Source: an uncultured bacterium (lineage in GTDB: Bacteria > Bacillota_I > Bacilli_A > RF39 > UBA660). Taken from it: a stretch of 64,000 bases of DNA. The stretch covers positions 545-64,544 of the forward strand of contig CAMVPB010000005.1 of assembly GCA_947169285.1 (NCBI GenBank), given 5' to 3'. A program made the position numbers and the translations under genes. Shown one piece after another: positions 21,500-24,754 of the stretch. The notes under the pieces were generated by a model, which saw nothing but the letters and a program-made list of their open reading frames with translations, had not been told where the DNA came from and ran no database searches. The number at the start of each line of letters is the position of its first letter. Within the stretch, counting starts at the first letter, position 1.

Positions 21500-23806
21500 A
21501 TGAAGATTACTAAAGAAGAAATAAAATTATTAGATAAATACTTTAGGGCAGCAAATTATGTTTCTGCTTGCCAGTTATATTTACTTGATAATCCTCTTTT
21601 AAAAAGAAAATTAGAGCCAAGTGATATTAAAAATAAAATAGTAGGTCATTGGGGAACTGTACCAGGTCAAAATTTTATTTATACTCATTTAAATAGAATA
21701 ATTAAAAAGTATAATTTAAATGTTTTATATATTTCGGGTCCTGGACATGGTGGAAATGCAACTGTTGCAAATGATTACCTAGATGGTTCTTATACTAAAA
21801 TATATCCTAATATAACTGAAGATGAAGAAGGACTTAAAAAATTATTTAAACAATTTAGTTTTCCAAAAGGAATATCTTCACATGCTGCACCAGAAACTCC
21901 AGGAAGCATAAATGAGGGTGGAGAATTAGGATATTCTTTATCTCACGCATATGGAGCAGTACTTGATAATCCTGATTTAATAGTTGCTTGTGTTGTAGGA
22001 GATGGTGAAGCTGAAACTGGACCACTTGCAACATCTTGGCATGGAAATAAATTTATAAATCCTAAAACTGATGGTGTAGTTTTACCTATACTTCATTTAA
22101 ATGGCTATAAAATAGCCAATCCAACAATACTTGGTAGAATGTCTGATGAAGAACTAGAATATTATTTTACATCTCTTGGTTATAAACCATATTTTGTAGA
22201 AGGAAGAGAGCCGTTTATAATGCATCAAAAAATGGCAGCAACAATGGACAAAATAGTTAATGACATTGCTAGAATTAAAAGAAAAAACATTATAAATGAA
22301 TGGCCAATGATAATACTTAGAACGCCTAAAGGTTGGACATGCCCTAAAAAAGTTGATGGCCATTATATCGAAAATAGTTTTAGATCGCATCAAGTTCCTG
22401 TAAGCAAAGAAAACATTAGAGTATTAGAACGCTGGTTAAAAAGCTATAAGCCTGATGAATTATTTGATGAAAATGGAACTCTTAATAAAGATATAAAAAG
22501 TATTCTTCCAACAGGTAATAAAAGAATAGGTTTAAATCCTAGTGCTAATGGAGGACTATTACTAAAAGATTTAAAAGTCCCTAATTTAAAAGATTATGAA
22601 TACAAATTTACAAGACGTGGTAATACTGAAACTAGTGATATGTATAACTTAGGTGAATACATAAAAGATTTAATGAAATTAAATAAAAACAATTATAGAT
22701 TATTTAGTCCTGATGAAACTCTTTCTAATAGGCTTAATCAAGTTTTTTATAAGGAAAGAAGAAAATGGAATTATAGAACTTTTATGAATGATGAACTTAT
22801 GAGCCCTGATGGTAGAGTAATGGATTCAATGTTATCTGAGCATATGTGTGAAGGTATGCTTGAAGGATATATCCTAACTGGTAGACACGGTATGTTTAAT
22901 AGTTATGAAGCATTTATTAGAATAGTTGATTCAATGGCTTCACAACATGCAAAATGGTTGAAAGTTTGCTCAGAACTTCCATGGAGAGAAGATATATCAT
23001 CATTGAACTATGTTCTTACTTCTCATTGTTGGCAACAAGATCATAATGGATTTACTCATCAAGATCCAGGATTTTTAAATCATTTAGTTACTAAGAAATC
23101 AGATATAGTTAGAATGTATCTTCCTTTTGACACTAATACACTTTTATCTTGCTATGATCATGTTATTCAAACTAAAAATTATATAAATGTGATAGTTGCT
23201 TCTAAACATTTTAGACCTCAATGGATGAGAATGGATGAAGCTATTAAACACTGTAAAAAAGGAATAGATATATTAAAATGGGCAAGTGATGAAGGAAGAC
23301 CTAATATAATCTTTGCTTGTGCAGGCGATACACCAACTTTAGAAGTTCTAGCTGCTAAATCAATATTAAAGAGTAAACTTCCTAAATTAAAAGTAAGAGT
23401 AGTTAACTGTGTTGATTTATTTAAATTAGAAGTTCCTAAAAATCATCCACATGGACTTGATAATAAAGAATATAATAAGTTATTCCCTAAAACAGTTCCA
23501 GTAGTATTCAACTTTCACGGTTATCCAAGTTTAATACATGAACTTACATATAATAGAGATAACCATGGCAAAATGCACGTAAGAGGATATATTGAAGAAG
23601 GAACAATAACAACACCATTTGATATGAGAGTACAAAATAAAATAGATAGATATCACTTAGTAATAGATGCTATCAAGTATTCTAAAGTCAAAGATGGTGA
23701 AGAAGTTATTAAATATTGTGAAAAAATGTTAAAGAAACATAACAAGTATATTGCAGAATATGGTAAAGATATAGAAGAAGTAGAAAACTGGAAATGGAAG
23801 AATTGA
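21500..23806 (+). CDS. xfp: Xylulose-5-phosphate/fructose-6-phosphate phosphoketolase, 768 aa
   Basis: Characteristic blocks VGHWGTVPGQNF, GPGHGG, EGGELGYSL and TSHCWQQDHNGFTHQDPGF. The length is typical of the family. Confidence 0.9.
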   Translation: MKITKEEIKLLDKYFRAANYVSACQLYLLDNPLLKRKLEPSDIKNKIVGHWGTVPGQNFIYTHLNRIIKKYNLNVLYISGPGHGGNATVANDYLDGSYTKIYPNITEDEEGLKKLFKQFSFPKGISSHAAPETPGSINEGGELGYSLSHAYGAVLDNPDLIVACVVGDGEAETGPLATSWHGNKFINPKTDGVVLPILHLNGYKIANPTILGRMSDEELEYYFTSLGYKPYFVEGREPFIMHQKMAATMDKIVNDIARIKRKNIINEWPMIILRTPKGWTCPKKVDGHYIENSFRSHQVPVSKENIRVLERWLKSYKPDELFDENGTLNKDIKSILPTGNKRIGLNPSANGGLLLKDLKVPNLKDYEYKFTRRGNTETSDMYNLGEYIKDLMKLNKNNYRLFSPDETLSNRLNQVFYKERRKWNYRTFMNDELMSPDGRVMDSMLSEHMCEGMLEGYILTGRHGMFNSYEAFIRIVDSMASQHAKWLKVCSELPWREDISSLNYVLTSHCWQQDHNGFTHQDPGFLNHLVTKKSDIVRMYLPFDTNTLLSCYDHVIQTKNYINVIVASKHFRPQWMRMDEAIKHCKKGIDILKWASDEGRPNIIFACAGDTPTLEVLAAKSILKSKLPKLKVRVVNCVDLFKLEVPKNHPHGLDNKEYNKLFPKTVPVVFNFHGYPSLIHELTYNRDNHGKMHVRGYIEEGTITTPFDMRVQNKIDRYHLVIDAIKYSKVKDGEEVIKYCEKMLKKHNKYIAEYGKDIEEVENWKWKN

Positions 23807-23865
23807 AATAAAGAAGATTTTATGTTAAAATGAATTTGTTGAAGGAAACTTCATATAATGAGTAG

Positions 23866-23945
23866 GACACACTTTGAAGAGTAGGTGTGCTCCAAAGGTT
23901 TTGTTGCACACTATCCTCTTATCAAGGATAGTGTGTTTTTTATTT
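23866..23945 (+). ncRNA. Putative antisense RNA (type I antitoxin-like), copy 1
   Basis: Promoter-like TTGAAG...TATAAT at 23838..23859, then a ~80-nt region ending in hairpin cacactatcctcttatcaaggatagtgtg plus T-tract. It is convergent with, and overlaps the stop of, the minus-strand peptide gene. Confidence 0.45.
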
Positions 23946-24020
23946 AGACAAAAGTACTATAAATACTAAAGCAAACAAGAGGATGATTATTATAAAATAA
24001 GAAAAATCTTTTCTAGCCAT
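23940..24020 (-). CDS. Small hydrophobic peptide, 26 aa (MARKDFSYFIIIILLFALVFIVLLSK), type I toxin-like
   Basis: Minus-strand ATG at 24020 preceded by RBS gaggtga. Minus-strand promoter TTGCAG-17-TAATAT at 24093..24120. Two paralogues at 24408..24488 and 30103..30183 have conservative or synonymous changes. Not in the ORF track because it is under 60 aa. Confidence 0.6.
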   Translation of the reverse strand: MARKDFSYFIIIILLFALVFIVLLSK

Positions 24021-24330
24021 GAATCATCACCTCATTTATTTTTATAGAATAAAGGAGCACACACTAACCTCTATTAAGATGTGTCTAAGTCATATTAGCA
24101 TATTAAAAATAATGCTGCAAATGAGTGAATTTTTGATTTTGGACAGTTAATAATTTATTTTAATACAGTGTAGTTTTTATTTATTAAATACCTAAAAAAT
24201 GTATAAAAATAAATTTTATATTTGAATTTATAAATTTTAGAAGAAAATTTAAAAGGCCAAGAAAAAATTGAAATAAAGAACATTTTATGTTAAAATGAAT
24301 TTATTGAAGGAAACTTCATATAATAAAAAA

Positions 24331-24412
24331 GGACACACCTTGAAGAGTAAGTGTGCTTCCACATTAAGTGTTGCACTGCTAACATCTTGTCAATGTTAGC
24401 GTGCTTTTTATT
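24331..24412 (+). ncRNA. Putative antisense RNA (type I antitoxin-like), copy 2
   Basis: Same promoter (ttgaaggaaacttcatataat). The terminator hairpin has a different sequence (gctaacatcttgtcaatgttagc) but the same position plus T-tract, which is compensatory conservation. Confidence 0.45.
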
Positions 24413-24488
24413 TAAATATTAATACTATAAATATCAATATAAACAAGAGGATAATTATGAAATAATAAGATTTTTCTCTTTTATTCAT
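24408..24488 (-). CDS. Small hydrophobic peptide, 26 aa (MNKREKSYYFIIILLFILIFIVLIFK), type I toxin-like paralogue
   Basis: Minus-strand ATG preceded by RBS gggaggtga. Identical TTGCAG-17-TAATAT promoter region at 24555..24588. Confidence 0.55.
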   Translation of the reverse strand: MNKREKSYYFIIILLFILIFIVLIFK

Positions 24489-24754
24489 GCATATCACCTC
24501 CCTTATTTTTATAGAATAAGGAAGCACACGACTAACATCTATTAAGGTGTGTCTAAGTCATATTAGCATATTAAAAATAATGCTGCAAATAAGTGAATTT
24601 TCAATTTTATTATTCTAAGAATCATATTTTTGTGGTATAGAAATTTTTAAAGTATTAAGTATCAAATGATTTATAAAAATATATTTTATATTTGAATTCA
24701 TAAATTTAAAATAGTTAGCAATTGACAAATATATAATTAAAAAGTATAATTTAT

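Follow-up and report, generated by a model that had tools for sequence, protein, structure and literature searches.

Putative type I toxin-antitoxin-like modules with a convergent antisense RNA in an uncultured lineage of rumen Bacilli

Specialists expect that many type I toxin-antitoxin families still await discovery. The toxins of the bsrG and txpA systems have 38 and 59 amino acids (aa), respectively; the peptides of Ibs/Sib and Zor/Orz are very short and extremely hydrophobic, and these pairs are present on the chromosome in tandem or in several copies, the specificities of which have diverged. To our knowledge, Ibs/Sib and Zor/Orz are limited to Proteobacteria, and a fold-back of the 5' end of the toxin mRNA on its 3' end has so far been characterized in Gram-negative systems. 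In type I systems of Gram-positive bacteria, the antisense RNA is located on the mRNA's 3' side (PMC8594479). In Bacillus subtilis txpA/RatA, yonT, and bsrG/SR4, the two RNAs form a duplex, and its cleavage by RNase III is followed by decay of the mRNA (PMC3531473, PMC3834814); SR4, which binds the 3' end of bsrG, both promotes its decay and tightens sequestration of the Shine-Dalgarno sequence (SD) (PMC3834814). In the Gram-negative hok/Sok and aapA1/IsoA1 systems, the antisense RNA lies within the mRNA or at its 5' side (PMC8594479), and translation of aapA1 is activated by 3' trimming (PMC5416894). Sib is fully antisense to the ibs open reading frame (ORF); the Orz gene lies 5' of zor and does not overlap it (PMC8594479). 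Here we analyze a 64,000-nucleotide (nt) stretch, hereafter the window, of contig CAMVPB010000005.1 from an uncultured bacterium of the RF39 lineage of Bacilli_A. According to a preliminary description, it contains two tandem type I-like modules downstream of the phosphoketolase gene xfp, in each of which a minus-strand ORF of 26 codons converges with a short terminated plus-strand RNA.

The results make it rather probable that the modules represent chromosomal type I toxin-antitoxin-like pairs of a previously undescribed family. Conservation extends to the entire arrangement of ORF, SD, the two promoters, and convergent terminated RNA in 17 complete modules of related uncultured bacteria, and the predicted transcripts have two components expected of the class: a small hydrophobic ORF with its own promoter and SD, and an antisense gene whose product is able to pair with the mRNA. 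From this arrangement we infer the toxicity of the peptide and the antitoxin action of the RNA. Type I loci are nearly invisible to annotation, and the module family has no model in Pfam, NCBIfam, or Rfam; if the interpretation is correct, the known range of type I systems grows to include an uncultured rumen Bacilli lineage with a GC content of 25%. The family offers some 20 natural variants from three specificity classes, with covariation for an SD lock and for a predicted 5'-3' fold-back, and could thus serve as a compact test case for the communication of 3'-overlapping antitoxins with a 5' translational lock.

Modules of the window and their relatives

Units 1 and 2 occupy the interval between xfp (21500-23806; Pfam domains XFP_N, XFP, and XFP_C) and the T-box leader preceding aspS-serS, which begin at 24916. 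The window has a GC content of 24.8%, and nearly all of its long ORFs are on the plus strand. The tandem repeat is as initially described in its period of ~465-468 bp and in its beginning within the last xfp codons (at ~23799). Over ~450 aligned columns, the mean column identity of the two units is 87%, and a 40-nt block over the minus-strand promoter is identical in both. They are, however, not a plain recent duplicate: identity amounts to 84-91% in the flanks, which comprise the antisense promoter and 5' hairpin on one side and the toxin promoter and leader on the other, but drops to 72-73% in the core formed by the second hairpin, the terminator, and the ORF. Moreover, the units are assigned to different sub-classes of the family. 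A profile built from units 1 and 2 identified one more full module at 29967-30283 (nhmmer E = 4.9e-64), situated between a 338-aa gene and a 366-aa gene, so that the window contains three modules rather than two. Consistently, a covariance model of the plus-strand RNA, applied to the whole window with filters off, found exactly three copies with scores of 108-117 bits, the next best score being 18 bits. The coordinates of all features are collected in Table 1; annotation of the region should gain three genes for 26-aa peptides and three small RNA (sRNA) genes.

A metagenome scan with a pattern of the 5' hairpin and the start of the second hairpin produced 17 loci. Thirteen of these are clear homologues, and the other four (L005-7, L016) are unrelated coding sequence, false positives of the 21-mer/hairpin patterns that were discarded on reading. 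In species-representative genomes, a similar pattern gave true matches only on two contigs of one metagenome-assembled genome, "uncultured Bacilli bacterium isolate Reindeer_1_mag_108" from the reindeer rumen. Eight chance matches in unrelated genomes (L019-24, L027-28) were likewise discarded on reading. The nhmmer search over all fetched sequence resulted in 22 copies, including the third one in the window; the second copies in L002, L014, L025, and L026 were found at this step and were not pattern-selected. No match to unit 1 was detected by blastn in plasmids or phages, and viral contig scans yielded only chance or unrelated coding matches (L001, L029-L031). The first scan of the genome collection, with a toxin-promoter pattern, found nothing because the spacer sequence is not conserved.

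Two of the homologous loci, L014 and L009, share synteny with the window, their nucleotide identity to it being 82-87%. The modules of L014 are located directly after xfp and after a 338/344-aa gene, that is, at the same two sites as in the window. At the site syntenic to unit 3, both L014 and L009 have a module of a different sub-class that encodes 24-aa peptides. Judging from the sequences collected, the family has so far been seen only in uncultured AT-rich rumen Bacilli.

The three tandem pairs (units 1 and 2 of the window, L002a/b, and L025a/b) each join two different sub-classes. Apart from copies truncated by contig ends, the only partial ones are RNA-only: L018 11557-11665 (+), upstream of rplK, and L026a 1092-1197 (-). 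They have no adjacent toxin ORF and possess a deviant -10 region (TGATGTAAT, or no TG); these copies may be decaying remnants or free-standing antitoxin-like sRNAs. Toxin-only copies were not seen among the 22 copies, the sampling of which was seeded on the RNA. A separate observation concerns L015 (2888-2985, minus strand), whose peptide MNKREKSYYFIIILLFALVFIVLLSK combines the N-terminus of unit 2 of the window (class B) with the C-terminus of unit 1 (class A); this chimera suggests recombination between modules of different sub-classes.

The small ORF and the convergent RNA

The minus-strand 26-aa ORF with an SD is present in both tandem units, in agreement with the preliminary description, the SD (GAGGTG in unit 1, GGGAGGTG in unit 2) being 6-7 nt upstream of the ATG. 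An intact ORF of 24 or 26 aa was found in 17 family modules. The encoded peptides follow one pattern: M, a stretch of five or six residues that are polar or charged (K/R in positions 3-4 and D/E in position 5), Y/F-F, 15-17 hydrophobic residues, and an optional last K, with Kyte-Doolittle values of 2.5-4.0 for the hydrophobic cores. Overall, the charged N-terminal part is short, and the strongly hydrophobic part comprises 17-19 residues.

We considered whether the modules could be repeated non-coding intergenic elements, either an sRNA and terminator cassette or a mobile repeat, in which the 26-aa ORF is not translated. This would be consistent with the RNA-only copies L018 and L026a, with high nucleotide conservation in parts of the ORF (ATCATCCTCTTGTTTGC), and with the fact that the plus-strand terminator doubles as a terminator of upstream genes such as xfp. 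However, the ORF frame is open in all 17 divergent copies, whereas the two other frames of the same strand contain stops in all 17, and the three opposite-strand frames have stops over the ORF in 16, 11, and 17 copies. The entropies at codon positions 1, 2, and 3 are 0.63, 0.45, and 0.78, i.e., the third position varies most. Moreover, a GGAGG SD at constant distance from the ORF and a dedicated conserved promoter are retained across the family, and neither terminal inverted repeats or target duplications nor plasmid, phage, or viral matches were seen. A non-coding nature of the ORF is thus highly improbable.

Comparison of the peptides with protein families by hmmscan against Pfam-A with E up to 10 revealed no toxin family, in particular no Fst and no Hok; the weak matches were to SNARE, Sarcoglycan, YxzE, and SMIM43, all with E of at least 0.3. 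A PHROGs match of unknown function (E = 0.0086) is weak and was disregarded. A search of the 26-aa peptides against known toxin families by hidden Markov models, which the preliminary description had proposed as a check, thus gave no match in Pfam-A or in NCBIfam. On the RNA side, an Rfam scan with E up to 10 found no antitoxin family; the sub-threshold matches PyrR, TtnuHACA11a, and Srn266 (E 0.23-4.8, far under the gathering scores) are attributed to chance on terminator-like hairpins. Membership in the txpA/RatA or Fst families is therefore not borne out by Pfam or Rfam, and the modules would rather constitute a new family within the type I kind. The 39-aa extended ORF of unit 2, compared with 1.84 billion representative proteins, had only two matches, both of them over-extended ORF calls ending in the same peptide family, which means that this family is essentially unannotated.

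The plus-strand RNA folds as three hairpins, with z-scores of -4.0 and -2.8 in units 1 and 2, respectively. Its terminator hairpin and T-tract at the ORF stop codon were correctly noted in the preliminary description: the T-tract reaches the stop (in unit 1, T-tract 23937-23946 meets stop codon 23940-23942), and four terminator-like sites were detected in 1.4 kb versus 0.2 expected from shuffles. RNAalifold applied to 19 copies yielded 24 consensus pairs, 11 of them with compensatory changes, mostly in the terminator (e.g., AU/UA/GC at one pair) and also in the second hairpin.

The start of this RNA had been placed after TATAAT at 23854-23859, downstream of the presumed promoter ttgaaggaaacttcatataat, which gives a length of ~80 nt and makes the palindrome TGAAGGAAACTTCA a promoter or operator DNA element. 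Indeed, the sequence TA[T/A/G]AAT following the palindrome is -10-like and conserved, only its third position being variable. In addition, the stems of the palindrome (TGAAG-GAAA-CTTCA in unit 1), which we assign to the conserved 5' hairpin of the RNA, are invariant across copies, and therefore covariation gives this RNA hairpin neither support nor refutation. However, the 9-nt spacing between TTGAAG and TATAAT indicates that ttgaaggaaacttcatataat is not a sigma-70-type promoter, there is no TTGnnn at 16-18 nt and no TG extension, and the A-run after TATAAT is better read as the template of the U-run of the toxin terminator. On the contrary, the properly spaced candidate promoter upstream, TTGAAA-17-TGtTAAAAT in units 1 and 2, is conserved: its TG-extended motif TGnTAnnnT is found 8-9 nt upstream of the 5' hairpin in 20 of 22 family copies, while the surrounding sequence varies. 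In unit 1, the -35 box TTGAAA of this promoter overlaps the TGA stop codon of xfp (23804-23806). The conserved upstream promoter implies an RNA of ~108 rather than ~80 nt, most likely starting at ~23838 in unit 1 and at ~24303 in unit 2, and we give little credence to the shorter transcript.

Predicted structure of the putative toxin mRNA

As originally proposed, each tandem unit has its own minus-strand promoter TTGCAG-17-TAATAT. In units 1 and 2 the -10 box is preceded by TATGc (extended -10), and the predicted starts near 24085 and 24553 give a leader of ~65 nt. The pattern TTGCAn-17-TAnnAT with the TG extension is present in every complete module of the family; in promoters of both strands the hexamers and the TG extension are kept and the spacer sequences are variable. 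On the opposite strand, the A-run between hairpins 1 and 2 of the plus-strand RNA is a U-run following the reverse complement of the second hairpin, and together they make an intrinsic terminator for the toxin mRNA. This A-run is conserved in the family. With these predicted ends, the toxin mRNA is ~230 nt long and overlaps the plus-strand RNA by ~90 perfectly complementary nt, a stretch bounded by the stop codon and the toxin terminator.

In the toxin leader (16 copies), the CUCCUUUAUU-like sequence pairs with AAUAAAGGAG, so that the SD is hidden in its first half. This hairpin has ten pairs, five of them with compensatory changes (UUUAUU/AAUAAA, UUAAAA/UUUUAA, CUCAAAU/GUUUGAG, UUUAAA/UUUAAA). 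The type I-like layout with 3' overlap, the central claim of the preliminary description, is thus supported by conservation of the module as a unit, by the preserved reading frame, and by covariation in the terminator, the second hairpin, and the SD hairpin.

The 5' hairpin of the toxin mRNA (GACACAUCUUAAUAGAGGUUAGUGUGUGCUCC) is nearly identical in sequence to the second hairpin of the plus-strand RNA, and both change together in divergent sub-classes, e.g., to GACAUGC...GCAUUCC in L025b and L026b. By virtue of this resemblance, the toxin mRNA has a 5' end that is complementary to the terminator region at its 3' end. For units 3 and 2, folding of the full-length mRNA gives ~-75 kcal/mol (z-scores -7.6 and -8.4), the predicted structures being closed by a 5'-3' helix. 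RNAalifold on 15 full-length toxin mRNAs gives 43 pairs, 18 with compensatory changes, and recovers the closing helix, the SD hairpin, and the hairpin of the 3' untranslated region (UTR), as well as the GUGAU/AUCAU pairing of the SD flank with the ORF. Taken alone, the closing helix (alignment columns 6-17 with 223-234) is 94.2% paired, compared with 30-64% in slid controls. It has six pairs changed on both sides, a count matched by one of 500 shuffles, and its covariation score (0.251 versus 0.186) was matched by none of 500.

A further complementarity follows the sub-classes. The 5' arm and loop of the plus-strand terminator resemble the complement of the toxin leader hairpin, CUAACAUC in class B and CUAACACUU in class C; in class A, the terminator arm is CUAUCCUC or CUAGCCC versus CUAACCUC in the leader complement. 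Class A duplexes have energies of -25 to -35 kcal/mol with cognate leaders, -17 to -20 with class B leaders, and -9 to -19 with class C leaders; for classes B and C the cognate preference is less clear. Duplex folding of the whole antisense RNA with the 5' half of the toxin mRNA resulted in sprawling duplexes with weak z-scores and was set aside as evidence, although it brought to light the resemblance of the terminator arm to the leader complement.

These structures suggest the following mode of regulation. The toxin mRNA would be poorly translated, its SD being locked in the leader hairpin and the nucleotides that directly follow the SD being paired with AUCAU within the ORF; pairing of the 5' end with the 3' terminator region would close the molecule, rendering the primary transcript translationally inert. 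The plus-strand RNA would form a duplex with the 3' UTR of the toxin mRNA, probably starting from the complementary loops of the terminator and the 3' UTR, as SR4 does on bsrG. RNase III would then cut the duplex, and the mRNA, deprived of its protective 3' structure, would decay, as in bsrG/SR4 and txpA/RatA. Read-through from co-oriented upstream genes such as xfp could add to the antisense RNA. If translated, the peptide would be expected to insert into the membrane and damage it, by analogy with other type I toxins.

Table 1. Location of module features and of adjoining genes for membrane-anchored proteins (positions in the window unless a locus is named)
Feature	Position	Strand	Details
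Unit 1 antisense-RNA promoter	23803..23831	+	TTGAAA-17 nt-TGtTAAAAT; promoter scan and family conservation
Unit 1 putative antitoxin RNA	23838..23946	+	~108 nt; fold z -4.0; covariance model 108 bits
Unit 1 antisense RNA parts	5' hairpin 23840-23853; second hairpin 23865-23893; terminator 23906-23946	+	
Unit 1 putative toxin ORF	23940..24020	-	26 aa, MARKDFSYFIIIILLFALVFIVLLSK
Unit 1 toxin leader	24021..24085	-	5' hairpin, then SD-sequestering hairpin CUCCUUUAUU / AAUAAAUGAG
Unit 1 toxin promoter	24092..24120	-	TTGCAG-17 nt-(TATGc)TAATAT; read from sequence
Unit 2 antisense-RNA promoter	24268..24296	+	TTGAAA-17 nt-TGtTAAAAT; promoter scan and family conservation
Unit 2 antisense RNA	24303..24412	+	
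Unit 2 antisense RNA parts	5' hairpin 24305-24318; second hairpin ~24331-24359; terminator 24377-24411	+	
Unit 2 toxin-mRNA terminator	24323..24356	-	Reverse complement of antisense second hairpin and T-run; terminator scan (24356-24333)
Unit 2 putative toxin ORF	24408..24488	-	26 aa, MNKREKSYYFIIILLFILIFIVLIFK; lengthened by the ORF lister to a 39-aa GTG start
Unit 2 toxin leader	24489..24553	-	SD-sequestering hairpin CUUCCUUAUU / AAUAAGGGAG, compensatory versus unit 1
Unit 2 toxin promoter	24560..24588	-	TTGCAG-17 nt-TAATAT
Unit 3 antisense-RNA promoter	29967..29995	+	TTGTCT-17 nt-TGaTACAAT; downstream of the 338-aa gene's terminator hairpin
Unit 3 antisense RNA	30003..30111	+	nhmmer E = 4.9e-64; covariance model 117 bits
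Unit 3 antisense RNA parts	5' hairpin 30005-30018; second hairpin 30030-30058; then terminator	+	
Unit 3 putative toxin ORF	30103..30183	-	26 aa, MTRKEIPYFVIIILLFALVFIVLLSK
Unit 3 toxin leader and promoter	30184..30283	-	Leader to ~30248; TTGCAT (30278-30283)-17 nt-TAATAT (30255-30260)
Anchored-protein gene, window	30470-31570		
Anchored-protein genes, L014	9624-10448	-	Position of the first gene; a second gene lies downstream of module b
Anchored-protein gene, L017			
Anchored-protein genes, L025	6060-6878; 7405 onward		
Anchored-protein gene, L012	4867-5478	-	
Anchored-protein gene, L026	6716 onward		

Genomic context and comparison with described systems

The plus-strand RNA is always co-oriented with the upstream gene and starts right after it. 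At unit 3 and in L008, L009, and L025a, the upstream gene has its own terminator preceding the module; xfp has none, and read-through from xfp would therefore contribute antisense RNA. On the other side, in 8-9 of ~16 complete modules the divergent gene that neighbors the toxin promoter belongs to one paralogous family of membrane-anchored proteins with a conserved N-terminus (MEEKKKGMSPILIVILT.IGTCLVGF.VWYG.NYFKGEE), variable C-terminal parts, and lengths of 198-366 aa, in which no Pfam domain was found. Homology between modules often reaches ~300 bp into the upstream region and 5' end of this gene. Other modules adjoin unrelated genes, namely aspS, rplK, and an epimerase-like gene.

Such neighborhoods bring up the possibility that the ORF encodes a genuine small membrane protein, perhaps a subunit or modulator of the neighboring anchored proteins, controlled by a cis-antisense RNA but being neither a toxin nor part of an addiction module. 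The frequent adjacency, the homology extending into the anchored-protein gene, and the lack of similarity between the peptide and known toxins all agree with this explanation. Yet it does not fit the modules located beside aspS, rplK, and the epimerase-like gene, and type I toxins are typified by layered translational locks, by tandem copies of several classes, and by RNA-only orphans such as those seen here, which would be unusual for an ordinary subunit gene. We consider this explanation unlikely, though less so than a non-coding element or an ~80-nt antisense RNA.

The promoters of anchored-protein genes have a peculiarity of their own: in the window (30436-30464, with the tract at 30439-30456), L012, the second copy of L025, and L026, the spacer between TTGATA/TTGTTA and TATAAT is filled by a (TA)n tract, whose length varies by locus (n = 8 in the window; 10, 5, and 6 elsewhere). 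Judged by its sequence, a (TA)n spacer is a classic design of slipped-strand phase-variable promoters.

Returning to the toxin-antitoxin interpretation, a more elaborate version can be advanced only tentatively, and we regard it as doubtful in its entirety. It would be a Gram-positive type I family with a hok/AapA1-style fold-back, where the second hairpin of the antitoxin copies the 5' hairpin of the toxin mRNA, so that part of the antitoxin's action would be that of a decoy, which vies with the 5' end of the toxin mRNA for pairing to its 3' end. Specificity classes would arise by concerted change of the three repeated elements, and the modules would be genetically coupled to the possibly phase-variable family of surface proteins with (TA)n promoter spacers. 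If true, this coupling suggests a role of the modules in stabilizing or gating variable surface-protein loci.

Several observations weigh against the toxin-antitoxin interpretation or weaken its support. The pooled ratio of nonsynonymous to synonymous polymorphism (pN/pS) of the ORF is 0.51, indicating only moderate constraint, and the nucleotide conservation of the ORF may partly operate at the RNA level, via pairing of AUCAUCCUC with the SD flank. The peptides have no match to a known toxin family in Pfam, NCBIfam, or PHROGs at permissive thresholds. As for the mRNA fold, an alternative with two local hairpins is 87.8% paired, with two pairs changed on both sides, a count also reached in 111 of 500 shuffles; since sequence is shared among all four arms, local hairpins could form instead of the 5'-3' helix. 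Unit 1 has GAGTA in place of AAAAA (plus strand) and thus lacks the T-run of the toxin terminator, and its SD is weakened to UGAGG; owing to these two changes this unit may be in decay or have reduced activity. Because the antisense RNA was the source of the search patterns, invariance of its 5' hairpin is partly due to ascertainment. For the same reason, the absence of toxin-only copies from the RNA-seeded sample is weak evidence and partly an ascertainment effect. Finally, the toxin-antitoxin model leaves the adjacency of anchored-protein genes to about half of the modules unexplained.

Two other features of the region deserve mention. Upstream of aspS-serS, a perfect consensus promoter TTGACA-17 nt-TATAAT (24722-24750) is followed by the T-box leader (24728-24880), which scores 48 bits (E = 5.9e-9), under the Rfam gathering score of 93, probably because of the extreme AT content. 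Just upstream of a DUF6512 gene and xfp, positions 19527-20879 encode a LigD-type protein with 3'-phosphoesterase and primase-polymerase domains, which is notable for a rumen bacterium with 25% GC.

Among the described type I systems, bsrG/SR4 and txpA/RatA share with the modules a Bacilli host, convergent genes, an antisense RNA that is complementary to the 3' portion of the toxin mRNA, and a partly sequestered SD, and the same sequence of duplex formation, RNase III cleavage, and decay would be expected. However, no similarity of sequence or covariance model to these systems was found with Pfam, NCBIfam, and Rfam, and the module peptides (24-26 aa) are much shorter than the bsrG and txpA toxins. 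In addition, the overlap in the modules ends at the stop codon, whereas in bsrG/SR4 and txpA/RatA it enters the ORF (PMC8594479), and the predicted 5'-3' closing helix is one more difference.

In Fst/RNAII (par of pAD1) and SprA1/SprA1as, as in the modules, a small peptide is encoded and the RNAs overlap only at the 3' end or terminator, outside the ORF (PMC8594479). These systems also have complementarity outside the overlap, for which the terminator arm and loop of the antisense RNA versus the leader hairpin would be the counterpart in the modules. Nevertheless, the DRa/DRb repeats of Fst target the translation-initiation region, whereas the additional complementarity of the modules targets the 5' hairpin of the leader, and the modules have neither a Pfam match to Fst (E up to 10) nor an antitoxin match in Rfam.

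Predicted 5'-3' closure combined with a sequestered SD, implying an inert primary transcript, would liken the modules to hok/Sok and aapA1/IsoA1 (for AapA1, see PMC5416894). They differ in that the antisense RNA of the modules is located at the 3' UTR, and in the lack of sequence similarity, including the lack of a Hok match in Pfam. Lastly, the very short hydrophobic peptides of the modules, present in tandem and multiple copies, are reminiscent of Ibs/Sib and Zor/Orz.

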